Shown piece by piece: positions 23-62,893 of a stretch of 64,000 nt of DNA; position 1 is the first letter of the stretch; the number at the start of each line of letters is the position of its first letter. Source of the DNA: Candidatus Sungiibacteriota bacterium (GTDB lineage Bacteria; Patescibacteriota; Minisyncoccia; Sungbacterales; HO2-52-23); contig JACPBG010000004.1 in NCBI GenBank assembly GCA_016180435.1, forward strand, positions 59,660 to 123,659. Reading direction: 5' to 3'. The notes under the pieces are model-generated. The model did not search any database, was not told the origin of the DNA, and worked only from the letters and a program-made list of their open reading frames with translations. The position numbers and the translations under genes are program-made.

Positions 23-3000
23 TTGCCTGCGGCCAAAGAACTAAGAACTAAGAACTTAGAACTTAGAAAACCAAAAAGGGAACTAAGTTCTAAATCACTA
101 AGATCTAAGTTCTATGATGCAAAATCATTTTGCATCGTTGTCCCTCCTCCCAACGTTACCGGTTCTCTGCATATGGGACACGCTCTGAATGCCGTTATTC
201 AGGACATCTTGATACGCAAAAAACGAATGGAAGGATTTAGAACTTTATGGCTTCCCGGTACGGATCATGCCGGAATTGCTACGCAAAATGTGGTGGAAAA
301 AGAACTTCGCAAACAAAATATTTCGCGCCACGAATTGGGCAGGGAAAAATTTTTGGCGAGTGTGTGGGAATGGAAAGAAAAATACGGGAATATAATTCTG
401 GACCAATTTAAAAAACTGGGTTCTTCTATGGATTGGTCGCGCGTGCGTTTTACCATGGATGAGGGGTATAAAAAAGCGGTGGAGGAGGCATTTATTCACT
501 ATTATAAAAAAGGATGGATTTACCGCGGAGAGCGCACGGTGAATTGGTGTTCGCGTTGCGCGACTTCCCTTTCGGACCTTGAAATTGAGTATCGGGAAGA
601 GAAAGGCAAATTTTACTATATTAAATACGGCCCCATGGTTTTAGGAACCGCACGGCCGGAAACAAAATTAGGGGATACTGCGCTGGCGGTAAATCCGGTA
701 GACAAACGGTATAAAAAATACATCGGGAAGGAAATTATTATTCGATCGGTGGATTCGTCGGTGGTTCGTGAAGAACAGCCCCGGCTCAAAGATATAAAAA
801 TAAAGGTGGTTGCGGATGAGGCGGCTGATCCGAAATTTGGAACAGGCGTGATTAAAGTAACGCCGGCCCATGATGCGGCTGATTTTGGAATTTATCAGCG
901 GCATCCCGAGATTCTGATTATAAAAGTAATTGGCGAAAACGGACGCATGACTAAAGAGGCGGGTGCGCGTTATGAGGGGCTGAAGGTTTCCGAGGCCCGG
1001 AAACAAATTATTGAAGACCTGGAAAAATTAGGACTCATGGATCATATCGAGGATTACACGCATAACGTCTCGTTATGTTATCGCTGCGGGACAGTGATTG
1101 AGCCGCTTCTTTCCAAACAGTGGTTCTTAAAAATGGATGAATTGGCTAAAATGGCAATTAAAGCCGCCCGCCCCGTTAGAGCCGGCTCTAATGGGGTTAA
1201 ATCCGGAAAAATTAAGTTTCATCCCAAGCGTTGGGAGAAGATTTATTTTGATTGGCTCGGCAATATCAAAGATTGGTGCATATCAAGACAGATTTGGTGG
1301 GGACACCGTCTGCCTGTCTGGTATTGTATGGGCTCGCATATCCAAACCGAAAAAAAAATGGGATTTGCCGGAGATATTGTCCCACAGGTTTTTATCAACA
1401 AAACACGGACTTACCGGTTACGCGATCACGGATTTAAAATTGGTGACCGTGTTGCATTTGAAAACAGCGCTACCGGAGAGATCTTTGGATACGCCGTAAT
1501 TACTGAAATTAAAAAAACAACCGCGGGTGAAATCGATTTAAAAGACCCGAAACATTACAAAATATATAACACCTGCGAGGAACTTATTACAGCATTCAAG
1601 CACCATCCGCAAAAAATAAATAAAGGAACAATCAGTGAAAATACTCTCGTGTGGATTTATACATATCGGTTTGAACCGGCTGATAAATCTGGATCATGCA
1701 TTCGGTTAAATCCCGTTGTAAAGGGCAACTGGTTTTTTGTGAGGCATGGAGAAACGGATTTTAATAAAGAACGTCGTATTCAGGGACAAACCGCTGGAGG
1801 CCCTCTTAATGAATTAGGAAAAAAACAAGCATATGAAACCGCTCAGCGGTTGAAGCCATATAAAATTGATTTAATTATTAGTTCGGATTTGGCGCGAGCT
1901 AAAGATACCGCCGAAATAATTGCCAAAGAGCTTAACGCCGAGATCATTTTTGATGCGGCATTGCGCGAAAGAAATTATGGCATTGCGGAAGGTACGACCC
2001 CTGAAGAGCGAAAACAGCACTACCCCGAATTAGAAGACCGTCTCAAGGAATATACCTTTGTGCCAGACGGCGGAGAAAATTTACCAACCATGGAGAAACG
2101 GATATACCGGGCGCTGGCGCAGCATAAAAAAAATCACCTCCATAAAAATATAGTCATCATATCACACGGCGCCACACTTAAAGGACTTTTTCGTAAGTTA
2201 AAAAATATACCGTTCAACGAGTTTTCCGAATTTACGATCCATAACGCCGGCGTTATTCATGTCTCCATTTCCGATCCATGTGAGAAATGCGGGAGCGATT
2301 TGGCGGAGCAAGACACTAATGTTCTGGATACATGGTTTTCATCCGCGCTTTGGCCTCTGGCAACACTTGGTTGGCCGGATAAAACGGGAGATCTTAAAAA
2401 TTTCTATCCCACCTCGGTATTATCCACGGCGCGTGATATAATCAATTTATGGGTGGCGCGCATGGTATTTTCCGGGCTGGAATTTATGGGAAAGCCGCCG
2501 TTTAAGGATATAATCATCCACGCCACCATTCTCACTAAAGATGGCAAACGGATGTCAAAATCCCTCGGAACCGGCATTGACCCCATGATTTTGATTGAAA
2601 AATACGGGGCAGATGCCGCGCGTTTCGGACTTATTTGGCAGGCCATGGGCAATCAGGATATACACTGGTCGGAGGAGCATGTGGTGGCCGGAAAAAAGTT
2701 TGCCAATAAGATTTGGAACGCCAGCAGATTCGTCCTGCTCCAAATTCCAAATTCTAAATTCCAAACTCCAAACAAATCACAAATTCCAAATTCTAAATTC
2801 CAAACATCGGCGGATAAAAAGATACTGAAACAACTGGAAAAAACAAAAAAAGATGTTTCCAAAAGCATTGATAAATATGAATTTGGACAAGCGCTACATG
2901 CGCTTTACGAATTTTATTGGCACGAGTTTTGCGATGTCTACATAGAAACAGCTAAATCACAAATCACAAATCACAAATCACAAGCAGCAACAGAAAATAT

Positions 3001-3134: not shown

Positions 3135-3166
<32 letters not shown>

Positions 3167-3257
3167 AGACATGAATGCTAAGATCTAAGTTCTTGAATGC
3201 TAAGTTCTACGTTGCATAGCAACGCTGGCCGCAGTCATAGGAATAAATATCGGATAT

Positions 3258-15063: not shown

Positions 15064-15447
15064 TTAGGCCGTGCCAGCCGCCTTTTTTACGCGCTCTACA
15101 ATTTCCGGGAGCGCGAAATTTGCTTTTACAAGATAATCAATCGCGCCCAGGCGTTTGGCTTCTTCAATATCGGTTTCTTCCGAGAGGTTTGAAAGAAACA
15201 TGGCTTTCATTTCCGGTCCTCCGGGTTCGCGCCGTATTTTGCGCAGTGTGTCAAAGCCGTTTTGGTCCGGAAGCAGTACGTCAAGTAGAATAATATCCGG
15301 CGCGGATTCTTTGAATTTTTCAACACCCTCGGCTCCGGTACGCGCCACCGAAATTTCAAAACCCGCATTGGAGAATTCATGCGTCAAAAGTTCCACCATA
15401 AAGGCGTCGTCCTCAACCAATAGAATTTTATGAGAAGTTTCTGCCAT
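15064..15447 (-). CDS. single-domain CheY-like response regulator (receiver domain); start taken at MAETSHKILLVEDD rather than longest ORF (15573)
   Basis: ILLVEDD...DIILLDVLLPDQNGFD...KAMFLSN receiver-domain pattern. Confidence 0.75.
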   Translation of the reverse strand: MAETSHKILLVEDDAFMVELLTHEFSNAGFEISVARTGAEGVEKFKESAPDIILLDVLLPDQNGFDTLRKIRREPGGPEMKAMFLSNLSEETDIEEAKRLGAIDYLVKANFALPEIVERVKKAAGTA

Positions 15448-15451
15448 AAAT

Positions 15452-15571
15452 GGGATTGTTGCCGAATGCGCTTTCGTAGCGAAAATGATGAATTTTGAGA
15501 CAAAATCGCTGAATAAACTTGGCGGCCTATCTGAAAGATAAGCCAAGAAGATGGTATTCGGCAACAGTCCC
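15452..15571 (-). ncRNA. ~120-nt structured 5' leader element immediately upstream of response-regulator start codon; second copy at 62732-62893
   Basis: outer stem GGGATTGTTGCC/GGCAACAGTCCC, internal hairpins CGCTttcgtAGCG and TTGGC..TATCtgaaaGATA..GCCAA; conserved blocks shared with 62732-62893. Confidence 0.45.
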
Positions 15572-15629
15572 AAATATAGTGTATAACTTTATTGGATTAA
15601 AATCAAAAACCGGTTTTGCACAAAACTTG

Positions 15630-19672: not shown

Positions 19673-21865
19673 ATGTCTATTTTGGATATTCCAATTGAAA
19701 ACGCGCCGCGGATCAACCGCCGCATTATTCCGGCGCTTAGGCGTTTGGGCATAAAAACCGTGCGCGATATTTTGTTTCATTTTCCCTCGCGCTATGAAGA
19801 TTTTTCGAACGAGAAACAAATTTCTGAAATAAAAATCGGAGAGATAGTAACCATATCCGGAATTATTAAAAGAACCGCTTTGCACCGCACGGCCCGCAAA
19901 CATATGGCGCTGGTGGAGGCGGTGGTTTCGGACGAGAGCGGATCCATAAAAGCCGTTTGGTTCAACCAGCCGTATCTTTTGCGGAATTTCAGAATCGGCA
20001 ACGCTCTGCGCCTTTCCGGAAAAATTGCCCGCGGACCCAAAGGAGTTTATCTGCAAAATCCCGCATACGAGAAGTTATCAGCTACCAGCTACCAACTACC
20101 AGCTCAACAAAGTATCCATACTGGAGGACTGGTTGCAATTTATCCGGAAACGCGGGGCATTACTTCGCGTTGGTTGAGGTTCTTGGTAAAGACCTTTATT
20201 GATCAGAGAAAATTTATAATTGATCCTCTGTCGACCGATGTGCGGAAAAAGCATGTTCTTCCGGATATTCAAACCGCGCTCAAAGTAATCCATTTTCCGC
20301 AAGATAAAAAGGAATCAAATCAGGCGCGACGTCGGTTCGTTTTTGAGGAACTTTTTTTAATCCAACTTCGTGCGCTTCGCGCCCGGGCGTTACTTAAGCA
20401 ATACTCGGCTCCCCAGATTCCGACCAATTTGCCGCTTCTTAAAGAATTCGTGGCGTCTTTGCCTTTTAAGTTGACCGATGCCCAGCGCCGATCCGTGTGG
20501 GAAATCGCGAAAGATATAGAAAAACCGCGTCCCATGAACCGTCTGCTGGAGGGAGATGTGGGGTCCGGAAAAACCGTGGTTGCGGCCGCAGCCGCATTGC
20601 TTGCGGTTCGCGCGGGATACAAGATCGCATTTATGGCGCCCACCGAAATTCTGGCGCACCAGCACTATGATACGTTTCAGAAAATACTTGAGCCGTTTGA
20701 TATAAAAATTGGAATTTTGACCGGCGCGAAAAAATTAGCACAAAATGCGGACATAATAGTCGGCACGCATGCGCTTCTCCACCCCGTTAGAAGTAAGACG
20801 TCGGGGGCGTCTGCCGATCCAATTTTATCGGATCGGACTTCTAACGGGGTAAAAAAATCCGCCAGGTTTGAAAATTTGGGGCTGGTGATTATTGACGAAC
20901 AGCATCGTTTCGGAGTCCAGCAACGAGCGGCGCTTGTTGTACGCGGATCTGCGTTGCTGCCCCACTTTTTAAGCATGAGTGCAACCCCCATTCCGCGCAC
21001 TCTTGCCCTTACAATCTATGGAGACTTGGACCTTTCCATATTGGATGAGATGCCAAAATCGCGGAAACAGGTTATTACGAGAATCATAGAGCCGGGGAAA
21101 CGGAATGAGGCATACCAATTTATTCGATCAGAAGTAAAAAAAGAAAGACAAGTTTTTGTGATATGTCCGCGCATAGAGCCATCACCAACGAATAACCCCG
21201 AAGTAGAACCATCGGTTCACTACGGGGCAGGCGAATCCGGCGCGAATAAACGAATAAATGAATCGGCGTTTCGCTTGTGGGAGGTTAGGGCGGTGAAAGA
21301 TGAATATAAAAAACTTTCCGAAACAATTTTTCCCGAATTTAAAATAGGAATGCTTCACGGCAAATTAAAATCCAAAGAAAAAGAGGCGGTGATGAAAAAA
21401 TTTAAAAGCGGAGAAATCGATATTCTGGTTTCAACTTCGGTGGTGGAGGTCGGCGTGGATATACAAAATGCCACGATCATGATTATAGAGGGCGCGGAGC
21501 GTTTCGGGCTGGCACAACTTCATCAATTCCGCGGCCGCGTGGGGCGCGGGACTGATCAATCATATTGTTTTCTTTTTCCCACCGAGGACGGCATGGTAAC
21601 GCGGCGTCTGCGCGCGGTGGTGGATGCCAGAAACGGATTTGAGCTGGCGGAGCAGGATCTGAAAATCCGCGGTCCCGGCGATCTTTTCGGGACGGAACAA
21701 TGGGGAATTTCGGATACGGCCATGGCCGCAATTACCGATTCGGTTTTGGTCCGAGAGGTGCGCTCTGCCGCTTATGATTTGATGCGTGAAGACCCCCTGC
21801 TTTTACTTGTGCCGGAGTTAAAGCGCAAACTTGAAGAGATTGAAAAAACAGCTCATCCGGAATAA
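19673..21865 (+). CDS. recG: ATP-dependent DNA helicase RecG, carrying in-frame palindromic-element insertions
   Basis: LEGDVGSGKTVVAAAAALLAVRAGYKIAFMAPTEILAHQH (Walker A region), LVIIDEQHRFGVQQR (DExH), helicase C motifs; wedge-domain region FNQPYLLRNFRIG. Confidence 0.9.
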   Translation: MSILDIPIENAPRINRRIIPALRRLGIKTVRDILFHFPSRYEDFSNEKQISEIKIGEIVTISGIIKRTALHRTARKHMALVEAVVSDESGSIKAVWFNQPYLLRNFRIGNALRLSGKIARGPKGVYLQNPAYEKLSATSYQLPAQQSIHTGGLVAIYPETRGITSRWLRFLVKTFIDQRKFIIDPLSTDVRKKHVLPDIQTALKVIHFPQDKKESNQARRRFVFEELFLIQLRALRARALLKQYSAPQIPTNLPLLKEFVASLPFKLTDAQRRSVWEIAKDIEKPRPMNRLLEGDVGSGKTVVAAAAALLAVRAGYKIAFMAPTEILAHQHYDTFQKILEPFDIKIGILTGAKKLAQNADIIVGTHALLHPVRSKTSGASADPILSDRTSNGVKKSARFENLGLVIIDEQHRFGVQQRAALVVRGSALLPHFLSMSATPIPRTLALTIYGDLDLSILDEMPKSRKQVITRIIEPGKRNEAYQFIRSEVKKERQVFVICPRIEPSPTNNPEVEPSVHYGAGESGANKRINESAFRLWEVRAVKDEYKKLSETIFPEFKIGMLHGKLKSKEKEAVMKKFKSGEIDILVSTSVVEVGVDIQNATIMIIEGAERFGLAQLHQFRGRVGRGTDQSYCFLFPTEDGMVTRRLRAVVDARNGFELAEQDLKIRGPGDLFGTEQWGISDTAMAAITDSVLVREVRSAAYDLMREDPLLLLVPELKRKLEEIEKTAHPE
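20782..20849. repeat. RPE-like palindromic element, family 1 (CCCCGTTAGAAGT...ACTTCTAACGGGG), inserted in-frame in recG adding ~23 aa (PVRSKTSGASADPILSDRTSNGV)
   Basis: terminal 13-bp inverted repeats; same termini at 29584-29684 and 59050-59183. Confidence 0.8.
21196..21227. repeat. palindromic element family 2 copy (CCCCGAAGTAGAA-n8-TTCACTACGGGG) inside recG
   Basis: shares TTCACTACGGGGCAGGCG with 18661-18680. Confidence 0.6.
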
Positions 21866-27558: not shown

Positions 27559-29493
27559 TTAATCTTTCCACAGGTTATTGGCCGCGTATTTGAGAATCAC
27601 GTCCACGCAGCTCGGGCAGTATCCATGCTCAAGGAGATTTTTGGTCATCATGTCGTATTTTTCCGTTTGCTCCGTGTCGCGCATGCGCGACTTGGTGATA
27701 ACCCGGCTTAGGTCGCGCACCGAAGTGATGAGTTTTTTCTCAATGGCCTCTTTGAGTGGCTCGTAACTGCGGAAGTCAATCTTTTCTTCGCGCCGCTTGG
27801 CTGCCCATAGATAGGAGATCACTTCCTGGCGGAATCCGTCGGCGGCCGAGCCGATGATGGCGATTTGCTCCTCGATTGATTTCATGAATCCTTCGTCGGG
27901 CGCCAACTCTTCTTTGGTGTTGCGATCCTTTACTTTGCTCTTGTTAACGTAGGCCTCGGCGTGATCCAGGTAATTCTGGAATAGCGCCTCCGCCTGCTCC
28001 TGGTAGGAATAGACAAACGCGCGGGTAATCTCCTTTTCCAGCACCTCAAGGTACTCCTTGTGCAGTGTATCCTGGAGAAACTCCAGATACTGCTTGCGCA
28101 TTTCGTCCGACAGATCAGCTTCCTTCACCATGTTGATCAGCGCTTCCCGAACATTGATGGGGTTGATGCAGTTGCCAGCGGTATTGTCGGTGAGCGCGTT
28201 ATCCAAGGCCTTCATTATGAAGCGCGTGGAAATACCGTTCATGCCTTCGCGTTTGGCTGCCTCGCGCAATTCCTGTACATCAACTTTCTTGGTGCGCCCC
28301 TTCTCAAGCACCTCTTCGCCGTTATACAGCTTCAGCTTGGTCATGAGGTCGCACTTGTTGGTGGGCTCCAGGCGCGACAGGATCGCGAACATGGAGGCGA
28401 CCTCCAGGGTGTGCGGCGCCACGTGGGCGCGGAAGTCGGAGTTGCGGATGATCTTCTGATAAATTTTAACTTCTTCGGAGAGGCGCAGGTTGTAGGACAC
28501 GCGAATCACCACAATGCGATCCAGAATCGCTTCGTTGGTGTGGTCTCCCTTGAATTTCTGCCACTCAGCCTCGTTGGAATGGGCCACGATAACTGTGTCC
28601 ACATAGACCAATCCGTGGCGGCCGGGCGCGGGCACAACCTTTTCTTGGGTCGCCGTGATCATGCAATGGAGATACTCGATTTCGTTTTTGAAAACCTCAA
28701 TGAACTCAACTATGCCGCGGTTGCCAACATTAAGCGCGCCATTTAGTTCCAGGACCCGCGGATCGCCCTCGGAATAGAGATCCAACTTCGAGATATCTTC
28801 GCTGCCGATCAGTACGGAAGTATCTTGGTTATTGGAATCCACAGGCGGAACCGATGCGGTACCGACCCGCGCGCGTTTGGAAAATTCCACGGTAGTAATT
28901 GGGAAGTCCTCATACTTGCCGCCGAACTCTTCTTTAAGCCGATAACGGCAGACCGGACACAGGTCGCCTTCAATGTGAATTCCCAGCATCTTTTCAAATT
29001 CTTTTCTCAAGTGGCGCGGTATCAAATGCAGGGGCTCTTCGAACATCGGACAGCCATCAATGGCGAAGATGGGATCGCTTGCCTCCAGGCCTCGATTCAG
29101 TTTTTCCGCAAGCGAGCTTTTGCCGGAACCCACCGGACCCATCAGATAGAGCACCTGGCGGCTTTCTTCACCTTTGAGCGATGCGGCGTGGAAGTAGCGC
29201 ACGATCTGGCTGACTATTTTCTCGATGCCGAAGAACTCATCGGTGAAGAAATCGTAAACCTTGATTGACTCGTCTTTGAAAAGACGTTTAACGTGGGGGT
29301 CGGTGCTTTCCTGAATGTCGCGGACGCCTGCTTTGACGATGATGTCATAAAAACGGGCGTGAGCCAGCTTGGCGATGGAGGGATCTTCCTTGATCTTGTC
29401 GAGGTAGCCGAGTAGCTTCCCGCTCCAATCATTTCGCCTATGGTGTGTTTCTCGGTCCTGTCTGATCAGTTCTCTGTATTCGTCTTCGCTCAT
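27559..29493 (-). CDS. prkA: PrkA-family serine protein kinase (YeaG-like)
   Basis: LYLMGPVGSGKSSLAEKL, FGGKYEDFP, NGALNVGNRGIVEFIEVFK, HCMITATQEK, IVAHSNEAEW, EEQIAIIGSAADGFRQEV. Confidence 0.85.
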   Translation of the reverse strand: MSEDEYRELIRQDRETHHRRNDWSGKLLGYLDKIKEDPSIAKLAHARFYDIIVKAGVRDIQESTDPHVKRLFKDESIKVYDFFTDEFFGIEKIVSQIVRYFHAASLKGEESRQVLYLMGPVGSGKSSLAEKLNRGLEASDPIFAIDGCPMFEEPLHLIPRHLRKEFEKMLGIHIEGDLCPVCRYRLKEEFGGKYEDFPITTVEFSKRARVGTASVPPVDSNNQDTSVLIGSEDISKLDLYSEGDPRVLELNGALNVGNRGIVEFIEVFKNEIEYLHCMITATQEKVVPAPGRHGLVYVDTVIVAHSNEAEWQKFKGDHTNEAILDRIVVIRVSYNLRLSEEVKIYQKIIRNSDFRAHVAPHTLEVASMFAILSRLEPTNKCDLMTKLKLYNGEEVLEKGRTKKVDVQELREAAKREGMNGISTRFIMKALDNALTDNTAGNCINPINVREALINMVKEADLSDEMRKQYLEFLQDTLHKEYLEVLEKEITRAFVYSYQEQAEALFQNYLDHAEAYVNKSKVKDRNTKEELAPDEGFMKSIEEQIAIIGSAADGFRQEVISYLWAAKRREEKIDFRSYEPLKEAIEKKLITSVRDLSRVITKSRMRDTEQTEKYDMMTKNLLEHGYCPSCVDVILKYAANNLWKD

Positions 29494-29583: not shown

Positions 29584-29684
29584 CCCCGTTAGAAGTTTGG
29601 TCCTGAAATCTCCATACGATTCAAATAATCCAACTATTATTGTGATGACGCATACACCGGGTGAGGATTACACTTCTAACGGGG
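29584..29684. repeat. RPE-like palindromic element family 1, intergenic copy
   Basis: CCCCGTTAGAAGT ... ACTTCTAACGGGG termini. Confidence 0.8.
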
Positions 29685-48942: not shown

Positions 48943-49368
48943 TCATTTCAGTATGTCAATTCCCATTGAGCGGGCCGTACCCTCGATTATTTTTTCTGCG
49001 GCCTCGGGGTTCTCGGCGTTTAAATCCTCCATTTTGCGCTCGGCGATCTTTCGGATGTCTTCGCGGGTAACACGCCCCACCTTCTTTTTATTCGGCTCTC
49101 CGGACCCCTTTTCCACGGATGCGGCTTTGCGCAGCATGTCGGATGCCGGCGGAGTTCGTAATTTAAACTCAAAACTACGGTCTTCAAAGATCGTAATTTC
49201 CACGGGCACAATTTCTCCCTCCATTTTTCCGGATGCCTCGTTATATTTTTTTACAAAGTCCCCGATATTGATGCCGTGCGGCCCGAGAGCCGTGCCTACC
49301 GGCGGCGCCGGAGTGGCTTTGCCGGCCGGAAGCTGGAGTTTAAGTTTTACTTTAATTGGTTTGGCCAT
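48943..49368 (-). CDS. rplK: 50S ribosomal protein L11 (start at [12 protein letters not shown])
   Basis: [45 protein letters not shown]. Confidence 0.9.
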
Positions 49369-49369
49369 G

Positions 49370-49420
49370 TTTTTACAGATTAACACAGATTTCTCACAGA
49401 TGTTCACAGATCACAGATAA
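49370..49420. repeat. array of CACAGAT heptamers (x5, irregular spacing)
   Basis: inverted counterpart ATCTGTG array at 49803-49845. Confidence 0.7.
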
Positions 49421-49847
49421 ATTGTTTTCTATCGTTTGTATGGATATATCTGCAGGGCTTTAACGTTTTTTCTGCGAAATTTACCGCATACCCAAGTTCA
49501 TATTTGCTTATTTTTAGATACTCTAAGAGTTGTCGTCCGGCTTCAATCATTTTATGCGGCGGGAGCGCCTTTAGTTCTACCAGCACTTTATCATTTATAA
49601 GATAGTCGGGCACAAAGAAACCAATTCTTTTTCCATTAGTCACAGAATGCAGTGTTATTTTGGGCTTCGCGATAAACGAAATTTTAGCTTGTTCGAGTTC
49701 CTCTTGAAAGGCGCGGTCATATATAATTTCTCTATGCCCAGATCCGTATTTATTATGCGCCGCAAACAGGCAACCGATTATTTTATGACATAATTCTTTT
49801 TCAGGAAATCTGTGATCTGTGTTGATCTGTGTAGAATCTGTGGGCAT
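49404..49847 (-). CDS. GxxExxY-family protein (PD-(D/E)xK-like), inserted between nusG and rplK
   Basis: N-term [30 protein letters not shown] and C-term [10 protein letters not shown] are the family hallmarks. Confidence 0.7.
49803..49845. repeat. array of ATCTGTG heptamers (x4-5)
   Basis: inverse of 49370-49420 array. Confidence 0.7.
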
Positions 49848-49853: not shown

Positions 49854-50399
49854 TTATAGTTTTTTTATTTGTAATGAATCCAGTTCTACGGGCGTGTCGC
49901 GGCCGAATACGTTAACAAGCACCTTGATCTTGCCGCGGTCCTGGTCCACTTCCGATACTTTGCCGTCAAAGTCCTTAAAGGGGCCGTCGGTAATTTTTAT
50001 CGGATCCCCGATCAATACATCAATTTTGAATTTGGGTTCCTCCTCTCCGACGCGATTCAGTAAAACCTCCATTTCTTCGGGTGAAAGCGGAGTGGGCGTG
50101 GTGCCGGCGCCGATAAATCCGGTAACGCGGGGAGTATTTCGCACTACGTACCAAGAGTCGTCGGTCACGACCATCTCCACCAAAACATACCCGGGATAAA
50201 TTTTTTCTTCAACTACGCGCCGTTTCCCGCTTTTAATTTTTATTTTTTTCTCCACCGGCACGAGCACGTTGAAAATTTTATCCTCCATACCCATGGATTC
50301 GATGCGTTGTTTTAAGTTTCGCGCAACCGCATCCTCATACCCGGAATAGGTATGGACCGCGTACCAATTGCGCCCGAATTCCGATGTTTGTTTAGGCAT
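49854..50399 (-). CDS. nusG: transcription termination/antitermination factor NusG
   Basis: NGN domain WYAVHTYSGYEDAV..., KOW GDPIKITDGPFKDFDGKVSEVD. Confidence 0.9.
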   Translation of the reverse strand: MPKQTSEFGRNWYAVHTYSGYEDAVARNLKQRIESMGMEDKIFNVLVPVEKKIKIKSGKRRVVEEKIYPGYVLVEMVVTDDSWYVVRNTPRVTGFIGAGTTPTPLSPEEMEVLLNRVGEEEPKFKIDVLIGDPIKITDGPFKDFDGKVSEVDQDRGKIKVLVNVFGRDTPVELDSLQIKKL

Positions 50400-53393: not shown

Positions 53394-54547
53394 CGCAATA
53401 AAGCATGAAATATTTTCTCGGTTTGTTGATAAATTTTGGCTTGAATCGGGTCTATTTCTTCGGTTAAAAGCGTTCGTTCATTACTGCGGTATGTGATCCG
53501 ATAAGTGTAACTTATTTTTCCCGGGCCGAATTTTTCCTTATTTTCGTAGCGATCCAAAAGTTTCACTTCTTCCACCATATCTCCTCCCAAATCGCGGATA
53601 AGGTCAAAATAATTGTTGGGCACGAAATCATTTTTTACGATAAAGGAGATATCGCGGGTGATCTGCGGGAATTTTGAGACCTCTTTAAACTTATTACCCA
53701 ATTTTAACTGGTTTTTTACCCTTGGGTTTTCCGACCAGAGCAGTCGGATATCCGGTAGCGACATGGAAACAATTGCCAAGCGCTCGAGTCCGAAGCCAAA
53801 CGCCCAACCGTGGTAGCCCGTTAAACCAAAATTGGCAAGCACGCTTTTTCTTGCCATGCCGGAACCCAGCATTTCGATCCATTGGCTGTTTATTTCAGCT
53901 TCCATTTCAAAACTTGGGTCGGTATACGGAAATTGGTGCTCATAAAAGCGGAAATTTACGTCGCCAAAAATACTGCGGGCTATTTCAGACAGCGCGTTTT
54001 TTAGATCCACCGGGGTTATGGTGTGTTTATCATCCGGCGTTATATAAAGGCCGCCGAATTGATGGAAAACATTCATGTGCTTGCCGTCTATTTCATCTTT
54101 GCGATAGACCTTGCCGTAGCAAATAGCTCCCAAAGTTTCCTGGTTTTCAATTCTTTTTTTGATTTCGGGGTGGTTTAAATAATAATACCAAAAAACCGTA
54201 TCATGGGTCCTCAAAACATGATTATCGTCCACATAATATGTGTCAGATTTGCTGCGGGCAGGATGACCCGGGGGCATATTGAAAAGATCAAATAAAATAT
54301 AAGTGGAAACTATTTCCGGTATGTCTATTACATCAAATCCCACAAGACTTTTGACCCCGCAAGCCCTGTCAATAATTTCTTTTAAGGGACCCCCTTTTGT
54401 CCGTGAAAGATCGGGCATAGCCAAGAAGCGCAGGATGCGTTTGGCTTCCGGATCGGCGCGTTTTTTCAATTCCTGAAGGATTTTTTGTTCCTCATCGCGC
54501 GGGATATGGATTTCTTCTCCGGTTGTTTTGGTGAGTAGTGATGACAT
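53390..54547 (-). CDS. pheS: phenylalanyl-tRNA synthetase alpha-like single-chain enzyme with C-terminal FDX-ACB-like anticodon-binding domain (mitochondrial-type architecture)
   Basis: class II motifs PPGHPARSKSDTYYV, FRxE region, GWAFGFGLERLAIV (motif 3); ~100-aa C-terminal extension FPQITRDISFIV... Confidence 0.75.
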   Translation of the reverse strand: MSSLLTKTTGEEIHIPRDEEQKILQELKKRADPEAKRILRFLAMPDLSRTKGGPLKEIIDRACGVKSLVGFDVIDIPEIVSTYILFDLFNMPPGHPARSKSDTYYVDDNHVLRTHDTVFWYYYLNHPEIKKRIENQETLGAICYGKVYRKDEIDGKHMNVFHQFGGLYITPDDKHTITPVDLKNALSEIARSIFGDVNFRFYEHQFPYTDPSFEMEAEINSQWIEMLGSGMARKSVLANFGLTGYHGWAFGFGLERLAIVSMSLPDIRLLWSENPRVKNQLKLGNKFKEVSKFPQITRDISFIVKNDFVPNNYFDLIRDLGGDMVEEVKLLDRYENKEKFGPGKISYTYRITYRSNERTLLTEEIDPIQAKIYQQTEKIFHALLR

Positions 54548-54660
54548 GATTTTTGTATCATATCACTTTTGGGTAAAAAATAAAGTATGCCCACTTTTTC
54601 CGTTTGAGCGGGAAAAGTGGGCATACTTTGAAGTAAAAATTTCTACCGGGATTCAATTTT

Positions 54661-57600
54661 TTACTGCGGAGGGATTTCTATAAAAGAAGGCGGCGGTTTT
54701 ACCAGCGCGGTTGCACTTCTTGATATGCCATCGCAAGTCAAGGTAAATATGGTGGTGGAAGCCAGATTCACTTTGGGGCAGGCCTGGTATCCGGCAATTC
54801 CGCAATTGGTTTGAACCGGGGTATTGTTGATCGCGGTTTTGGGATTATTATCCGTAAGAGTGCAGTCAGTTGCGCCAAATCCGTCGGTTGTCCAAGAAAC
54901 AGTTGTGGGCTTGCCGGCGTCAATGGGTGTGGGATCTACGCCGAATGTTACAATTCGTCCTTTGATTTCTATGGGCGAGTTTGTGCAGGTGTTTGGCCCG
55001 TCGCTCGTAAATCCGTCACTTACGGTTACAGCTCCGTTTTTTTGGCCGCTGGAGGGATATATAGCATCATATGGGTTTGCGGTTTGTCCGCCAAGCGGAG
55101 CGTCTCCGGACCAGATAAAGCTGTAAGATCCCGAACCGCCGGTTGGGAATGCGGTCCAGCGCACCGTATCATCTATCATGGAGGCGATCGCCGGAACCGC
55201 CGTACAAGTCGCGTCAAGATTTACATTCACCACGGTGCGGCGTTCGGCAGACGGAGCAGGACCCTGTTCCAGGATAACTTTAGCGGTTGAACGCAGAGCA
55301 TAGGCGCGGGGAACCATCATGGAAGTCGCTGATTCGCCATTACATTTGGCGCCATTGGAGTTGGTCGCGCATATGCCGTCACCGGCTTGTTCACAACCCA
55401 CAGGATTACCCGGAGATATGCAAGTTGGCGGAAGCGCTCCACACACGCCTGATACGGTGCCAACATTAGTGCCGGCATTATTGCAATTCCACCAGAATGA
55501 ATAATTAATTGTGCCGAGTGCTGTACTTGCCGGGTCGCGCGTTGCGGTAATATTACGGTTAACACCCGGATCCGCCGGGTTTGGAACAACACTAAGCGAA
55601 GATATTAAAAGGGTCTGCGCATTAACAGTCAGGGTAAATGTCGTGGTGCGCGTAAGAGGGCCGCTTGTGCCGGTAACAGTTACGGGATATGACCCGGCCG
55701 GAGTTGAACCCGAGGTTGTAATATTAAGGGTTTTTGAACAAGGAGGATTGCAGGATGCGGGAGACGGGGCAAAGGAAAAACTGACACCGGAAATCGGCGC
55801 TGAAGTTATGGAAAATGTAACCGACTGGGTTGCGCCGGAATCAAGCGAGGCATTGATGGTCCGGGATGTATTATAGCCCTGGGTTACGGACACGTTGCCG
55901 TTGTTGGACAGCGAAAAATCAAACGCCGCGCCAACGGTAAATGAAGTCCCGGCTCCTGCGCAGTTATTATTTTCATTTGACTCGGTTACGGCGCCGGGCG
56001 GCGGAACCGGAGAAACATCCGCGCAAAAATACACGGTATGCGGCCCTATGGTTGCGGGCCAGGAGGATGAAGTAATTGAACCGGAACTTCCTCCGCCCGA
56101 AGTCAACGCTCCGATACTCGGAGCATTTATTTGTCCGGTAGAGGATGTAAGGCAATTTGAATTATCAATGCAAAAGCGGGCGGTGGATGCTCCGGCATTG
56201 GCTGTGCCGACATTGGTAACGCCGCTATTGGTAAAGGTAAGAGTTTGTCCCGCAATAAGAGTGCCATTTACCGTAATACTCGGACCAACCACAAGATCGG
56301 GTGTGGGAGGCACTCCCACGTTAAAAGTGGCGGTGGTGCAGTTATTTCCCTGACTTGTGTCATTAATATAGTCGCTGGTTTCGGAAAAAGCATTTCCCAC
56401 ATCCGCGCATACTTCAAAAAGATGTGTTCCAACTTGCGCGGTCCAGGCATTGGTCCAGTTTTCAACTTCGGTATCCCCGGGATTACTTGCGGCAGCTAAT
56501 GCTCCGGTGGTTTGATCAGCCGGAGTAAAATCCCATGTGCCATTATTATCTATATCCAAGCGTAAACGCGTTTGGGAAGATACGGATGCCGCACCCGTTC
56601 CGGAATTTCTCACAGTCGCCGCAAAAGTTACCAATTGTCCGGCGCTAATCGGGCCCGGAACCGGACCGGCTGTGGCCAGTCCCTCGGTAATGTAGTCGGG
56701 TTCAGATGCCGTTGAAACCGTAAACGTCTGCGCTGAACAATTGTTTGTTTCGTTTGTTTCATTCTCAACTGGATTCGGCTGATCGGCACAAAGGGAAATT
56801 CTATGAGTCCCGAGTTCCGCGGTCCATGTGCCCGATGTTACTGATTGCGAGCCCGAAGGCGCGAGCGCGCCAGCCGCAATCATGGGATGGGGAGTAAGCG
56901 CGCGATCTTTACCCATAGTATCGTTATAGAGCTGCGCAATTTCAGACGCATTCAGCGCCCTGCCGTACACATATACTTCATCAATTTGCCCGTCAAAATA
57001 TACCCCAGAGCCATCATCCTGACTACCGATTGCGCTATATGAGGAAGGCGTATTCGGCGTTAATGATTGAGAAAAATTCACAGGTCCTGATGCCGCAAGC
57101 GCGCCATTAACATACACGCTCATAAAATCTCCTGCATAATTTATCACCCCCGCGATATGGTACCACGTATTCAGCGCCAGCGGAGGAATTGCTCCCGAAG
57201 TGCTAACGCTTTGAATCGCCTCGGTATCCATAGACCGGCCCACAACCCGCACATTACCGGATGAGGTGAACTCAAGCGCGGCGCGAGATTCATTAGTTGG
57301 GACAGCGCTGTTGATTGAAAAAGAAACCACTCCGTTGACAAAGCCGGCAACTACGCTTTCTCTTCTAACCCACGCGGAAATGGTTACGGCGGCTTTTTTG
57401 CGTACGGTGTTAAGATTAGTACCCAAATTAACGTATTCATTCACTCCATCAAAATCAAGAGCTCCATTTACTCTGCCGCCCATCCAATCGGTGGATTCCA
57501 TATTGACGAGCGTCCCGTTGATTCCGCTTCCTGAAAAATCACCCGCGCTGGTTCCGGATGTTTCATCGAAATGCCATCCGCCCGCAAGCCCTATCGGATC

Positions 57601-58324: not shown

Positions 58325-59962
58325 TCAATTTTTACTTATGCCGAATGATACGGAAATCAAGTCAAGAATTGTTTTTTCCGGATAGGTTTTAAGCAGAGTT
58401 TGATAATCAACGTAATATTTTGTCTGTCCGTAGTATCGGACAAATGAGGGCGGCATATCGCCGTGCCACACTGATCCGGAAAATGGCAGAAAATAGAGCG
58501 AGGGGAAAGAGCGCGTGATAAAGAGCTCTTTTAACTCAAGGGGTTGGGGAAGAAGCGCGGTTAGTTTCATCAGGTTCCGGTTTTCAGCAACTCCCCGGCG
58601 GATGAGTGCTTCAAAATATCCGCTTTTCTCCCGGTTGACCTCAATAATTTCGCGAAGCAGGTCCGGAGTATCGTTTCCGGCAAGTTCGCGTAATTTTCCA
58701 TCCGGATATTTTTCAAGTGCCAATCGGATGGCGTAAAGCACCCGGTCCTGCGTTTCACGCCAGATCGGATCTGCTTTAAGAAATGAGTCAATTGCGGACA
58801 CAAGTTCGGGCAATTCTATATTCCAGTGGCTGGCGCGCCACTCCAGCAGCAATTTCCGCACGCGATATAGCGTAAAAATCTGGGCGTGGTAGGAAACATC
58901 CGGACAGGAATAATAATTGAAGTTTGGCTGCCAGTAATATTCAAGTCCGGCTTGGCGGAGCGGCTTGAAAAATCGCGTTTCCTCGCCATAACTCAGGGTG
59001 AAGTGAAAAAAGGTTTGGCGTATGGAAAGCGGAGTAAGAAATTTGTTGACCCCGTTAGAACTCCGCTGACTCCTGCTCGCCTCGCTAAAGCTATGGCGAA
59101 GCGGGTCGGCGGTAACGGCAGAGATAGTCGATGGGGGTGTAATACCCTCATCGGCGGGTTGTGAAGCGCCCGTTCTAACGGGGTTGACGCGCGCCAGGTA
59201 AAAAAGATCGCGTTCTCCTTTGGCCGGGTCTCCTCCACAGCCAGTCGGAATTTCGGCCAAAGGCATGACCGGCAGCCACTTCATGCGTTCAATGATTTTT
59301 TTTGTAAATGCAAGGTTACGCAGTTCGTCGGGGGCTAAAATCGGATTTGGCGCTATGACAGGCGCGGCAATGGTAACCGGCAAGGATGGCGCGGCGCGTT
59401 GAGTCGGGGTTTTTGCGTTTGCGATCAGCGCCGAAATATTGGAAAGAAGCATTTCGCGGGTTATAACGCTTGTCCCATAATGGTAAAATTCATTTTTTGT
59501 AACGCGGGGCAGATTTTCTAGCGCGTTTTGATATTGTAAAAGATCTTTTTGATATAACGCTGCAGTGCGGTTAAGCGCCCGACGGTATGTTAAAAAATTT
59601 TTCAATGCCAGATTTTTTATAAATGCGCGGCGCGTCTCCTCCAGGTTCGGCAGTGATTCCAGAAAATCAATAGGGTGAAAAGAGGTTTCAATGAGCTGTT
59701 TGTCCCCATCTTTAGGATAGAGGGCGGCGACTGCGTTGACGGTTTCTTTCAATTCTTTTATTTTAACGCGGAGCGTTGCGGTGTCTGCTCCCGTAAGCCC
59801 AAAACGCGGTTGGGTCCGGGCTTCCTCCAGCGCCGCAAAAATTATTTGTCTTGACCATCCCCAGATCAGCAGTATGGAAACGCAAATAAACGCCAAGGCG
59901 GTTACGCCTTTGCGCAAATTATCCGTTTGCAGCAGTTTTCTATTTTTTTTATTTATGTTCAT
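58325..59962 (-). CDS. hypothetical N-terminally anchored protein, paralog of 61373..62731; carries in-frame RPE-like insertion
   Basis: C-terminal RSFPSLYFLPFSGSVWH aligns with RSYPSLYYLTFNRSVWR in paralog. Confidence 0.5.
   Translation of the reverse strand: MNINKKNRKLLQTDNLRKGVTALAFICVSILLIWGWSRQIIFAALEEARTQPRFGLTGADTATLRVKIKELKETVNAVAALYPKDGDKQLIETSFHPIDFLESLPNLEETRRAFIKNLALKNFLTYRRALNRTAALYQKDLLQYQNALENLPRVTKNEFYHYGTSVITREMLLSNISALIANAKTPTQRAAPSLPVTIAAPVIAPNPILAPDELRNLAFTKKIIERMKWLPVMPLAEIPTGCGGDPAKGERDLFYLARVNPVRTGASQPADEGITPPSTISAVTADPLRHSFSEASRSQRSSNGVNKFLTPLSIRQTFFHFTLSYGEETRFFKPLRQAGLEYYWQPNFNYYSCPDVSYHAQIFTLYRVRKLLLEWRASHWNIELPELVSAIDSFLKADPIWRETQDRVLYAIRLALEKYPDGKLRELAGNDTPDLLREIIEVNREKSGYFEALIRRGVAENRNLMKLTALLPQPLELKELFITRSFPSLYFLPFSGSVWHGDMPPSFVRYYGQTKYYVDYQTLLKTYPEKTILDLISVSFGISKN
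59050..59183. repeat. RPE-like palindromic element family 1 (134 bp) inserted in-frame in 58325..59962, encoding NPVRTGAS...SSNGV
   Basis: CCCCGTTAGAACT ... CGTTCTAACGGGG termini. Confidence 0.8.
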
Positions 59963-59965: not shown

Positions 59966-60008
59966 ATGTCAATTGTCAACTGTTAATTGTTAAATGTTGG
60001 TTGTCAGT
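59966..60008. repeat. 7-bp tandem repeat (NTGTYAA x6): atgtcaa ttgtcaa ctgttaa ttgttaa atgttgg ttgtcag
   Basis: seen directly between 58325..59962 start and 60004..61419 end. Confidence 0.7.
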
Positions 60009-61419
60009 CGTCGGTATCATCTATTTTCCGGATAAGGATTTGTTTGGCCGCGTCCGGAAAACCGCCCCTGATTTCTATTATCAGGGGCAGAAACCGGCCC
60101 GCAGATGCGAGATCCGCCAGGGTCTTATCCGGGGTTAAAAATAAATTTCTACTTATGTGCTCGGCTAGCCACGTTAAAAAATGGTTGATATCCAAAATAT
60201 GGGAGTCCGCGGGCTGGATTAATATTCTTAATTCACCAAGCAATTTTCCGCCGGTTTGTTTTTCCCGTACTTCTCCGCGCCACTCCTTAACGTATGATTT
60301 TAGGGAGCCCATGACCCTTTCCAGTTCCGTTCTCACGATAAGCGCGCCTCCGTATCGGATGTAGTCGTAATTTTTTCGGCCCGCCAGAAAAAGCGTGAAT
60401 TTCGCTCCGCAGGGGCATTTTTCTTTCACGACTCGTCCCATGTCGCCGGTGCGATAACGCAGCAGCGCCCATCTGTGGTTGAGGTGGGTGACCGCAATTT
60501 CGCCGCAACCGTTTTCATCCATATCCACCAATTCTATAATAGTACCATTTAAAAAATTGGGGTGGTACACGTCCTGGCGTCCATATCTTCGTTTCAGTTC
60601 CGGGCATGAGTGAGAAATCTTTCCGGCTTCGGTCATGGTGTAATTTAGATTAAGTCTCGCATTATGGAAAAATTCATGAATAATGCGGCGCTGGGTGGCG
60701 CTCAAGAAATCCCCACTCAAGTCAATAATTTGGATTTTAGAAGACAATGCTTCGGCCGCCGTAAAGACAGATGTGAATCTGATAAGATTTGCGGGGAAAC
60801 TGAAAATATTATCTGCGCCAAATTCTTCGAGGGCCTGCCGCATTTTGATGTTAAGACGCGCGGGGTCGAGTATAAGTGTTTGTAAAACCCCATTTGGTTC
60901 GCGGCGATTGCCCAAAATGTTTAGCAGAACGCCGCGTAGGCAAATCATAAATGGCCCTTCAATCCAAAGAGTGCGTTTTCTGCCGGAGCGCGCCAGGCCG
61001 ACCGGCATTAAAAAAAGAGGCGGTTCGTTTAGCGAAACGGTGCCGGAAGTGGCGCGCAGAATAAAATGACGGGTTTTATTTTTGATTTCCTCCCGCAGAT
61101 CAATCAGCCGCGGGTTTAGGCCAATTTTAAAAAAATCATCTTTAACCAGAAACGGAACGCGTTTCCACTGTTCTTTATCCATTTTTCCGGCTGTGAACCG
61201 AAAATTATGGTTGCCGAAATGTCTTTGCCAAAATTCGAGCTTCTGCAGTTCGGTTAAAAATTTTCCTAATTCGGACAAGGTAAGTTGTTGGGATTTTTGG
61301 GAAATAAATCCCCCTACCATGAATTTACGTTCGGGGCGTTCTTTTTTATGCGCGGTCGTGTCCATGGTCTTTTTAATAAAGTTGTTTCCAATCCATATGG
61401 CGGTATTTTTTGCTTTCAA
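60004..61419 (-). CDS. PaaK/CapK-like adenylate-forming enzyme (phenylacetate-CoA ligase / F390 synthetase family)
   Basis: ILRATSGTVS (cf. TSGTTGKP), YRTGDMGRV (YRTGD motif). Confidence 0.6.
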   Translation of the reverse strand: MKAKNTAIWIGNNFIKKTMDTTAHKKERPERKFMVGGFISQKSQQLTLSELGKFLTELQKLEFWQRHFGNHNFRFTAGKMDKEQWKRVPFLVKDDFFKIGLNPRLIDLREEIKNKTRHFILRATSGTVSLNEPPLFLMPVGLARSGRKRTLWIEGPFMICLRGVLLNILGNRREPNGVLQTLILDPARLNIKMRQALEEFGADNIFSFPANLIRFTSVFTAAEALSSKIQIIDLSGDFLSATQRRIIHEFFHNARLNLNYTMTEAGKISHSCPELKRRYGRQDVYHPNFLNGTIIELVDMDENGCGEIAVTHLNHRWALLRYRTGDMGRVVKEKCPCGAKFTLFLAGRKNYDYIRYGGALIVRTELERVMGSLKSYVKEWRGEVREKQTGGKLLGELRILIQPADSHILDINHFLTWLAEHISRNLFLTPDKTLADLASAGRFLPLIIEIRGGFPDAAKQILIRKIDDTDD

Positions 61420-62731
61420 AAATCTTTTCTAAAATTTCTGAAGAAACAAACGGTTCAATCTCTTCGAGGGTCTTGTAAATTCCCCCATTCCCAAAGCGGC
61501 TGCCTAAAAATCTCGGCGCATCGGATATGCGCCAGACACTGCGGTTAAAAGTCAAATAATATAGAGATGGATAGGACCGGGCAATAAAATTATAAAGCGG
61601 GGAGGGATTTTGGCCGGCCCGGGCCTGGACCTTTGACATAACCATATAAGACCGTTCGTGCTGTACCCCGGTCCATAAAATCAGGTCCAGCATACTTGAT
61701 TTCTGGCTAAGAACCGCCTGATGGTCTAAAAATGTGCGTCTCCAGTTTAAGTCCGTTAGGGTGGCCAAATCAGCATAATAACGAAGGTCTAGAACCGAGT
61801 AAAACGAGGTTACGTCTTGGTGCCAATAACGGACGCCGCGCTTGAGCGAGGGCTCGTATATGGCGCGGGTTCGGTTGTCAAACGGACTTTGTGCCGCAGG
61901 CAGGGCGCTTTCGGTTTTGGTTAATTCCAGGAAAAAACGGCAATCCGCCAGTGAAATATGAAAACTGCGGCGATTACGGTTGTCTCGGGTAACATAAGTG
62001 AAAAAGTTATGGATTCTGGGCGTGCCGTCCAAATGAGCGAATTCATAAAAAATAGGGCCGTATTTCTCAACCAGGCCGGATATATGTTTTTCTTCCAGAC
62101 GGAGAATTTCTTGATATTTTTCGGAAAGAGACGGCCCCTGAATTTTCCAGGGAATGGGGTCAGCCCCGGGAGGTTGCGCATCCGAAAAATTTATACTTTT
62201 GAAATCGCCGCGTTCAAAAATATTGCGGCGGCGTTTCACCTCCTTCTTTAACTCTTTTAGATTGGAGTAAATGACTTCAATTGATTTAAGAAACTCGGCG
62301 AGTGAAATGCTATTGGTATGAAAATAAAAAATCGAGGTGTCCGGCGGAATATGTTCTTGCCGGCATAAATCCAAAATGGAATCGCGGTAGGCCGTTAGGT
62401 TAAGTTCCAACGCGGAAACAGTTTTTTCGTGCGTGCGCAGGAGCAATTCGGCATTTTTTTCTGAGGGGCTGATTATAAATCGGCGCCGTTGGCGCTCGCT
62501 TTCCAAAAATCTTTTTAAGAAACCGATGGGATGCAGTGTTTCCGTGAAAGGATGCCAAAAACAAAACCAGCGGTGCGACGGGCGCCATACCCGTTCCACC
62601 TCGCGCGTTAAAAATTCCAGTTCCTCCAGCGCCCACTTGGCGTTGTCAATATCCAGCCCCTCGGCCGCAAACAAGGGGTCGCGGAGCGTGAAGTTGTGGA
62701 ACGATTTTATTTTTTTATCCATTGATTTCAT
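61373..62731 (-). CDS. hypothetical protein, paralog of 58325..59962
   Basis: shared C-terminal domain; preceded by structured leader copy 2. Confidence 0.5.
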   Translation of the reverse strand: MKSMDKKIKSFHNFTLRDPLFAAEGLDIDNAKWALEELEFLTREVERVWRPSHRWFCFWHPFTETLHPIGFLKRFLESERQRRRFIISPSEKNAELLLRTHEKTVSALELNLTAYRDSILDLCRQEHIPPDTSIFYFHTNSISLAEFLKSIEVIYSNLKELKKEVKRRRNIFERGDFKSINFSDAQPPGADPIPWKIQGPSLSEKYQEILRLEEKHISGLVEKYGPIFYEFAHLDGTPRIHNFFTYVTRDNRNRRSFHISLADCRFFLELTKTESALPAAQSPFDNRTRAIYEPSLKRGVRYWHQDVTSFYSVLDLRYYADLATLTDLNWRRTFLDHQAVLSQKSSMLDLILWTGVQHERSYMVMSKVQARAGQNPSPLYNFIARSYPSLYYLTFNRSVWRISDAPRFLGSRFGNGGIYKTLEEIEPFVSSEILEKIFESKKYRHMDWKQLY

Positions 62732-62893
62732 GGGTCTGTTGCCGAATGCGCTTTCGTCGCGAAATTTCAGAATTTCGAGGCAAAATCATTGAACAAATTT
62801 GGCGGTTTATCTGAAAGATAAGCCAAGAAATTTTGAGATGATTTTGACCGGAATTCTGAAATTGCAGTAGAAATGGCATTTGGCAACAGACCC
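62732..62893 (-). ncRNA. structured 5' leader element copy 2 (162 nt; copy-1 core plus ~40-nt insertion), begins directly after start codon of 61373..62731
   Basis: GGGTCTGTTGCC...GGCAACAGACCC outer stem; conserved blocks gccgaatgcgctttcgt, ttggcggtttatctgaaagataagccaagaa. Confidence 0.45.

Follow-up and report, generated by a model that had tools for sequence, protein, structure and literature searches.

The 134-bp segment and its host gene

The gene considered here encodes a 545-aa hypothetical protein (58325..59962, minus strand) of a Candidatus Sungiibacteriota bacterium (assembly GCA_016180435.1, contig JACPBG010000004.1), and its coding sequence contains a 134-bp palindromic segment at 59050..59183, hereafter called copy A. 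The window, as the term is used below, is the whole 64,000-nucleotide stretch of this contig that was analysed. The sequence of the host protein is that of HYT98_04245, from a Candidatus Sungbacteria metagenome-assembled genome (MAG); no Pfam family was found for this protein, nor for the products of the neighbouring open reading frames (ORFs) 60004-61419 and 61373-62731, and its only homologues found were three proteins of 500, 496 and 465 aa (76, 74 and 42% identity, respectively). The insert corresponds to residues 259/260-304/305, and the translation of copy A in the minus-strand ORF, NPVRTGASQPADEGITPPSTISAVTADPLRHSFSEASRSQRSSNGV, exactly matches the peptide assigned to it by a first-pass annotation made from the sequence alone.

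Copy A is classified as an unstranded, non-autonomous element of a GC-rich subfamily named 'GAAC' after the end of its repeats. Motif and arm comparison places its left terminal inverted repeat, CCCCGTTAGAAC, at 59050..59061 and the right one, GTTCTAACGGGG, at 59172..59183 (both plus strand); the arms form a perfect 12-nt inverted repeat, or 13 nt if the flanking A/T is included. Immediately outside them, the tetranucleotide TTGA (TCAA on the gene strand) is present at 59046..59049 and again at 59184..59187 (plus strand), and a comparison with the empty site of an orthologous locus (L001) identifies these as the two copies of a target-site duplication. With up to one mismatch, the 12-mer end occurs 7 times in the window, compared with 0.27 expected occurrences, and none of 100 shuffled sequences reached this number. 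The single-stranded segment is predicted to fold with -83 kcal/mol (z = -6.8 vs shuffles) into a closing stem and two internal hairpins: hairpin 1 (CCGCTGAC...GTCGGCGG; 59063..59112, plus), which is conserved across the subfamily with compensatory changes, and hairpin 2 (CGATGGGGGTGTAATACCCTCATCG; 59127..59155, plus), which is also conserved. The G+C content of copy A is 61%, in contrast to 45.5% for the window.

Evidence for an insertion

The three orthologues (P0002, P0003 and P0004) all lack exactly 46 residues between ...LFYLAR and VNKFL.... At the DNA level, the empty site of the closest one (L001) reads GGCGCGCGTCAAC|AAATTT (in short form, GCGCGTCAAC|AAATTT), while the filled site in the window reads GGCGCGCG-TCAA-[CCCC...GGGG]-TCAA-CAAATTT; that is, TCAA is single in the orthologue and double around the element. 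The 134 bp of the element and the 4 bp of the target duplication thus yield a net gain of 138 bp, equivalent to 46 codons. Additionally, full-length relatives of copy A with approximately 80% identity are found at unrelated, mostly intergenic loci in other metagenomes.

These comparisons demonstrate that copy A is the insertion of a member of a dispersed family with terminal inverted repeats and target-site duplications, and we are close to certain that a mobile palindromic element has been inserted here without loss of the frame. The 134-bp in-frame insertion claimed in the first-pass annotation is therefore borne out by the orthologue gap, the empty site and the dispersed relatives. The comparison proposed there, with the paralogue at 61373..62731, did not help, as BLASTP aligns only residues 94-184 and 445-508 and leaves the insertion site uncovered; since the paralogue is too divergent at this point, the orthologues were needed. 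Formally, copy A is a mobile element resembling a miniature inverted-repeat transposable element (MITE): it has terminal inverted repeats and a target duplication that was checked against an empty site, and it is small, without an ORF of its own and represented by many dispersed copies.

Under the opposite polarity, the 46-residue segment would be the original state, lost from the orthologues by precise deletion, and its inverted repeat would be incidental. As the host family consists of only four sequences, few taxa stand behind the polarity; however, an ancestral segment would hardly be expected to carry the terminal repeats of a family together with a 4-bp duplication of a site that is single in the orthologue, to have full-length, approximately 80%-identical copies at unrelated and mostly intergenic loci or to differ so much from the window in G+C content. 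This possibility is already contradicted by these data, and we consider it scarcely credible.

Other copies in the window

The window contains four copies of the family in total, and nhmmer searches with two subfamily profiles found no further ones in it. A 68-bp copy of a two-hairpin, three-way-junction subtype lies in frame in recG (20782..20849, plus), where it is read as HPVRSKTSGASADPILSDRTSNGV between THALL and ...FENLGLVIIDEQH. A 101-bp copy (29584..29684, unstranded) is intergenic, has a perfect TCAA duplication and is found upstream of a 644-aa ORF (27559..29493). Finally, a minimal hairpin copy of 26 bp is located in valS (1171..1196, plus); it has one arm mismatch and no duplication left, and the insert that it encodes, RPVRAGSNGV, coincides with an exact 10-residue gap relative to the T. 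thermophilus valyl-tRNA synthetase (ValRS) 1gax. The recG copy had previously been described as having the same ends as copy A on the opposite coding strand. The assignment to one family and the opposite strand hold, but the ends are not fully identical, as position 12 differs (GAAC in copy A, GAAG in recG), the difference being matched on both arms in each case.

A family dispersed in Patescibacteria

A genome scan (one genome per species) with the query ACCCCGTTAGAAGT returned at least 120 loci, and about 1.5 Mb of sequence around the matches was sampled. Single matches in unrelated bacteria occur at the chance level for a 14-mer. Among the matches listed, paired, inward-facing ends separated by 29-282 bp are found in dozens of Patescibacteria MAGs, including Saccharibacteria, Nealson-, Staskawicz-, Kaiser-, Jorgensen-, Doudna-, Falkow- and Gribaldobacteria, as well as in a few MAGs of Pirellulales, Omnitrophota and Gammaproteobacteria. 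As a negative control, the same 14-mer gave 81 single matches in 2.9 million viral contigs, essentially at the chance level, and only one contig had two short elements. The survey establishes that the family spans Patescibacteria. From the loci listed (at least 120), 85 paired-end elements were extracted, and the sample comprises around 100 family elements in all, with lengths of 29-166 bp. An exact 4-bp direct repeat outside CCCC...GGGG was observed in 51 of 79 simple elements among the matches listed. When the sites are oriented by the duplication, the target consensus is R|T-N-A-A followed by a weak C, and 50 of 54 sites have a purine at -1. Copy A, inserted at G|TCAA|C, agrees with this consensus, R|TNAA|(C).

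The sequences between these ends are not random and can be grouped into subfamilies. The canonical AT-rich form, of about 130 bp, is conserved across lineages and consists of one end, an A/T hairpin (CAGAAAAAATTT..AAATTTTTTCTG), a ATAACGGGG box, GTCTGTCTGAAATTAGC..GACAGAC and the other end. In a form of about 65 bp, to which the recG copy belongs, the linkers AAG and CTG are kept and both hairpin stems are changed in a compensatory way, while the minimal forms (29-44 bp) are made up of two ends and a loop and still have duplications. The GAAC form, the type of copy A, was found at 16 loci by the metagenome scan. Copy A aligns end to end with elements of 134 or 131 bp (L129, L141, L128 and L136), with which it shares TTNA duplications in a common orientation, and a 123-bp form is related; the match of copy A to the subfamily profile has an nhmmer E value of 4.8e-41. 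In this subfamily, conservation extends to the closing stem and to both hairpins, with compensatory changes in six pairs.

A search of Rfam gave no match for the elements either at the gathering score or at E <= 10. Two resemblances to known motifs were dismissed: a hammerhead-like CUGAUGAG, present in two copies, is not conserved in the family, and an integron attC site (5' RYYYAAC ... GTTRRRY 3') would require the reverse order on both strands, as copy A starts with ..GTTAGAA and ends with TTCTAAC... The family was not found described in the literature searched (for the motif, for MITEs in bacteria of the Candidate Phyla Radiation (CPR) and for GIY-YIG mini-elements flanked by terminal inverted repeats) or in Rfam and, within these sources, the family is previously undescribed.

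Some individual loci deserve mention. Four minimal hairpins are arranged in tandem with a period of approximately 31 bp (CCCCGTTAGAACTCGATTGAGTTCTAACCGA x4) at L139:902-1028, an arrangement that is unique within the family sample. At L095:770-935, the interior of a 166-bp element resembles the 3' half of a tRNA (GGGTTCGATTCCCAGCGGCCCG), which suggests that foreign sequence can be captured between family ends. Two identical 130-bp copies at L047:543-672 and 1247-1376, 704 bp apart, share their TAAA duplication as well as the sequence that flanks them downstream; the pair is a local tandem duplication and not two insertions.

Reading frame and selection

Among the matches listed, 13 of 79 reconstructed empty sites fall in long ORFs, as opposed to 56% of random positions (p = 7e-13). 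The frame is kept (that is, the length plus 4 is divisible by three) in nine of these 13 elements (p = 0.009) and lost in the other four. These figures demonstrate that the preservation of the frame is due to selection and not to the element itself: insertions in genes are filtered for frame. The mobile and frame-preserving nature that the first-pass annotation attributed to the family has therefore to be divided. Mobility stands, but frame preservation is not intrinsic, as the elements, at 29-166 bp, fall in all classes modulo three.

What the elements do possess intrinsically is a pair of largely stop-free ends. In either orientation these are open in two of the three frames, which read PVR.../...SNGV and PLE.../...LLTG, and the third frame contains TAG and TAA. 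Ten copies elsewhere are spanned by a long open frame, of which seven read PVR...SNGV and three PLE...LLTG. Of eight host ORFs compared with Pfam, those that read PVR...SNGV encode IF-2, SecA, the DNA polymerase III alpha subunit (DnaE), HypD, a sulfatase, a histidine kinase, a DeoR-like regulator and an fn3 protein. The 134-bp subfamily is free of stops in the PVR frame in seven of ten copy-orientations and is, consequently, easily tolerated in genes, where copies are present in both element orientations. Of 68 non-coding elements whose duplications are perfect, 13 are located at a start codon, where a GTG is regenerated. The host gene of copy A survives the insertion because 138 bp amount to 46 codons, the repeats are read as PVR.../...SNGV without stops and the subfamily is largely stop-free in this frame. 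We infer that the inserted codons are translated and that the resulting loop is tolerated, and the host protein probably carries the extra 46 residues as a surface loop.

Alternatively, the segment could be removed after transcription or translation, as an intron or intein would be, leaving the mature protein unchanged. Its strongly conserved secondary structure could be seen in this light, and CPR rRNA genes are known for intervening sequences (PMC11270868). However, no Rfam family matches it even at E <= 10, and it lacks intein-like termini, as the insert begins with NPVR and finishes with SNGV. In-gene copies are, in addition, enriched for lengths that preserve the frame (nine of 13), all the copies spanned by a long open frame are stop-free in it (although they were selected on that basis) and both orientations occur in genes. 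A spliced segment would need neither the length nor the stop-free constraint, and we regard its removal as highly improbable.

A 282-bp unit encoding a GIY-YIG protein

The longest unit found between the family ends is 282 bp in length. At L082, it is bounded by these ends and by a TGAA duplication and contains a single ORF, which codes for a 93-aa GIY-YIG protein (PF01541). This protein has 956 homologues, and the best 120 cluster representatives are 68-100% identical and mostly 93 or 86 aa long. The translated left end forms the N-terminus (MNPVRS, MNPVRN, MSPVRS and similar; ATG AAC CCC GTT AGA AGT) in 74 of these best 120, and a C-terminal F (GAC TTC TAA, with the stop inside the right end) is found in 91 of them. 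The two termini co-vary within this set, as is required of paired ends, PVRS being associated with DF (34:2) and PVRN with GF (13:4; p = 2.4e-7). The ends of the unit were confirmed in the DNA of nine independent loci, six of which have exact duplications. Among solved structures, the protein is closest to the stand-alone GIY-YIG proteins of the UPF0213 family 1zg2 and 1ywl (BH0048 and EF2693); its NCBIfam TIGR01453 score, 28 bits, is under the cut-off of 56.

The unit contains practically nothing but this ORF, which starts at or before the left end and stops inside the right end with no other spacer. Typically, it begins at a host ATG within the target (ATGAA), reads through the left end as NPVRS and finishes at the TAA of the right end, and several units lie exactly on a host start codon. 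For instance, the arrangement ...ATGAA|unit|TGAAAGCAGCAGTTTTCGAGGGC at L239 recreates (M/V)KAAVFEG as the N-terminus of a zinc-type alcohol dehydrogenase (Pfam ADH_N, ADH_zinc_N), and the unit of L224 is placed at the ATGA overlap between a gene of the His_biosynth family (hisF/hisA-like) and a glutamine amidotransferase gene (hisH-like). Where the right end is CATGACTTCTAACGGGGTGAA, which is read as MTSNGV-, the host gene gains an in-frame ATG; in L224, L226 and L235, the called start of the downstream gene is at this ATG, 11 nt before the stop of the unit.

At least one MITE can be traced to the unit. Two stretches of a DNA profile built from eight units, namely unit positions 1-103 (E = 1.3e-5) and 251-285 (E = 6e-4), match a 135-bp element (L016:1531-1665). 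The deletion in this element brings CGAAAAAGAATTT (codons KKRIL) next to AAATTCTTTTTCG (codons LKFFF), two internal segments that are inverted relative to each other, and creates the A/T hairpin typical of canonical MITEs. As judged from its sequence, the element is an internal-deletion derivative of the unit, so that at least one MITE is unit-derived. When other AT-rich MITEs were compared pairwise with the 3' end of the unit, 2-16 of 500 shuffles reached the observed similarity for three copies, and two others were not significant; these similarities are only suggestive, and the profile match of L016 is the firmer link.

The orientation of the canonical AT-rich MITEs (alignments A2 and A4) is tightly coupled to that of the TNAA target. 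With respect to the start of the downstream gene, it is apparently opposite to that of the nuclease units, for which selection and mechanism are both conceivable reasons.

Possible mobilisers of the family

Taken as a whole, copy A is likely to be best explained as a MITE-like insertion from a family that is mobilised in trans by the GIY-YIG unit. On this reading, a non-autonomous MITE-like element entered the coding sequence of a CPR-specific gene after its lineage split from that of the 76%-identical orthologue, duplicating the 4-bp target TCAA within GTCAAC. The family, in turn, would be mobilised in trans by the 282-bp unit, which has the same ends and duplications and encodes only a GIY-YIG (UPF0213-like) nuclease of 86-93 aa. 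This role of the nuclease is quite possible, although we stop a little short of calling it probable. As the terminal repeats are coding sequence in the unit, such an origin would explain their translation-friendliness. More broadly, and rather tentatively, the family may represent a new kind of minimal autonomous mobile element, of about 282 bp, with a GIY-YIG nuclease of around 90 aa as its sole product, 13-nt repeats, 4-bp duplications at RTNAA and a preference for start codons (ATGAA), which would borrow the ribosome-binding site and ATG of the host and give the host gene a new start (CATGACTTCTAACGGGGTGAA) in exchange; its non-coding copies, including the three in-frame inserts in the window, would be its MITEs. 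To our knowledge, a unit of about 282 bp is below the size of any insertion sequence (IS) known.

Several observations weigh against this explanation. All the evidence is comparative; moreover, the structure prediction for the host protein, made from four sequences, is too poor to show a tolerated loop (mean pLDDT, the predicted local distance difference test, of 44.5, with the insert modelled as a coil of low confidence). The similarity of all four window copies, copy A included, to the unit is confined to the 12-13-nt ends, the 64-kb window has no GIY-YIG unit and the GAAC ('PVRT') end variant of copy A is present in none of the best 120 nuclease representatives. The unit protein is a single domain of approximately 90 aa with no obvious DNA-binding or strand-transfer module. 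We know of no GIY-YIG enzyme that carries out transposition with terminal inverted repeats and target-site duplications, and no precedent was found in the literature searched. Four-base duplications are, instead, typical of DDE transposases, and the roughly 1.5 Mb sampled around the matches is a limited sample, so that a longer partner is possible.

These last points could also be accommodated if the MITEs were mobilised in trans by an unsampled, conventional DDE transposase (IS1380/piggyBac-like or IS5-like), with the GIY-YIG gene as a frequent passenger or as a homing gene that colonises the element. Four-base duplications combined with short terminal repeats are a hallmark of DDE cut-and-paste elements, and the ends (CCCC..TAGAA) and 4-bp T..AA target of the family bear a resemblance, though no more than that, to those of piggyBac (CCCTAGAAAG, TTAA) and to the 'CC' ends of the IS1380 type. 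However, in the loci sampled, no transposase lies within a pair of ends that are separated by 0.3-6 kb and have matching duplications, and the search for longer autonomous elements in this range gave only adjacent, independent copies. Furthermore, the nuclease ORF is integrated with both ends, which co-vary, and one MITE arises from the unit by internal deletion. We therefore consider a DDE mobiliser unlikely, although it is the alternative to be taken most seriously. The only neighbouring DDE transposase gene, in L239, was dismissed because it is not bounded by family ends.

A third proposal would be a palindrome of the repetitive extragenic palindromic (REP) or REPIN (paired REP) type, mobilised by a Y1 transposase (REP-associated tyrosine transposase (RAYT) or IS200-like). 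The element is, in fact, a hairpin-rich palindrome, and a 221-aa Y1_Tnp gene is found between a CARDB gene and pheS in the orthologous neighbourhood of relatives (L001-L006). Nevertheless, duplications are the rule in this family and Y1 transposition leaves none, the relatives that carry Y1_Tnp have no copy of the motif and there is no Y1_Tnp in the window. Mobilisation by a Y1 enzyme is, thus, very unlikely. In L001-L006, the Y1_Tnp gene lies about 10 kb from the orthologue, and it is absent at the syntenic place in the window (54547-54661).

Comparison with known systems

Among the closest precedents for in-frame palindromes are the Rickettsia palindromic elements (RPEs), repeats of approximately 100-150 bp found in frame in unrelated, often essential genes of a bacterium with a reduced genome, where the resulting peptide is tolerated (PMC10969869). 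The present family is likewise in frame in unrelated genes, among them those for ValRS, RecG, IF-2, SecA and DnaE. By contrast, it occurs in Patescibacteria, has crisp terminal repeats of 12-13 nt and 4-bp duplications, is mostly intergenic and has a candidate protein-coding parent. Accordingly, 'RPE-like' would denote a functional analogy and not a demonstrated relative.

Prokaryotic MITEs are described (PMC10969869, PMC5896051) as small, dispersed elements without an ORF, with terminal inverted repeats, target duplications, fold-back structures and occasional in-frame fusions to ORFs. The family shares these features with Coxiella QMITE1, Correia elements, enterobacterial repetitive intergenic consensus (ERIC) sequences and Nezha. 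Unlike these, its candidate parent is a 282-bp unit with GIY-YIG as its only gene instead of an IS with a DDE transposase, the conservation of its ends reaches across CPR lineages of phylum rank and duplications persist even in elements of only 29 bp, which consist of two ends and a loop. It also differs from piggyBac, as its target is RTNAA and not strictly TTAA and no DDE transposase was found between the ends in the limited set of loci sampled.

With respect to the unit, its protein has a GIY-YIG domain like the stand-alone UPF0213/YhbQ proteins (1zg2, 1ywl) and, like free-standing GIY-YIG homing genes, it sits between host genes or at their start. Homing endonucleases such as I-TevI have a DNA-binding extension and no terminal repeats or duplications; by contrast, the unit protein has only 86-93 aa, is surrounded by terminal repeats and duplications and borrows the start codon of the host. 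REPs, on the other hand, are inserted without duplication of the target and are associated with a gene for a Y1 transposase. Short hairpin-forming repeats in many copies are common to REP/REPIN sequences and this family; unlike REPIN-RAYT systems, however, duplications are the rule here and no Y1 gene is associated.

Patescibacteria genomes are among the smallest and most streamlined of bacteria, yet selfish inserts are present in frame in three genes of the 64-kb window, those for ValRS, RecG and a lineage-specific protein, and in the IF-2, SecA and DnaE genes of relatives, which means that the RPE phenomenon has arisen independently in a second clade with reduced genomes. In practical terms, the lengths and alignments of CPR proteins are inflated by PVR...SNGV segments, some CPR gene starts are mis-set through MTSNGV- extensions and the presence or absence of copies is a potential strain-level marker. 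If the 282-bp unit were indeed the autonomous parent, a nuclease class would be added to the repertoire of transposition with terminal repeats and target duplications, and a very small, host-compatible mobile element would become available for a clade with few genetic tools.

Other features of the window

A second, unrelated family of inverted repeats is represented by two copies, at 15446-15577 and 62732-62893 (132 and 162 bp), with the ends GGGACTGTTGCCGAAT.../...ATTCGGCAACAGTCCC and a shared interior, GCGCTTTCGT.GCGAAA...GCCAAGAA; of the two, one extends into the end of an ORF for a response regulator, while the other lies between genes.

Besides its 10-aa insert, the 1035-aa ValRS (23-3130) has an extended stretch at residues ~560-760 in which an RHG motif occurs (NWFFVRHGETDFNKERRIQGQ...) and which, recognised by eye, looks like an inserted histidine-phosphatase (phosphoglycerate-mutase-like) domain. 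Close to either end of the same ORF, runs of the 7-mer AGAACTT and their inverted partner (AGAACTTAGAACTTAG / CTAAGATCTAAGTTCT) are found at 51-113, inside the called 5' part, and at 3139-3193, just past the stop codon.

A 147-aa PD-(D/E)XK (PF13366) ORF at 49404-49847 fills nearly all the space between ORFs 49854-50399 and 48943-49407; judged from their positions, these two ORFs would be the counterparts of nusG and rplK in the relatives. The insertion is also present in the contigs of two relatives (L002 and L004) and was not called in two others (L001 and L003); this ORF may be another small selfish gene. Finally, a large serine recombinase (Resolvase, Recombinase, Zn_ribbon_recom) is encoded at 12362-13972 by an ORF that runs into a tRNA-Arg gene (13876-13948, minus strand), and this junction may be the edge of an integrated element.

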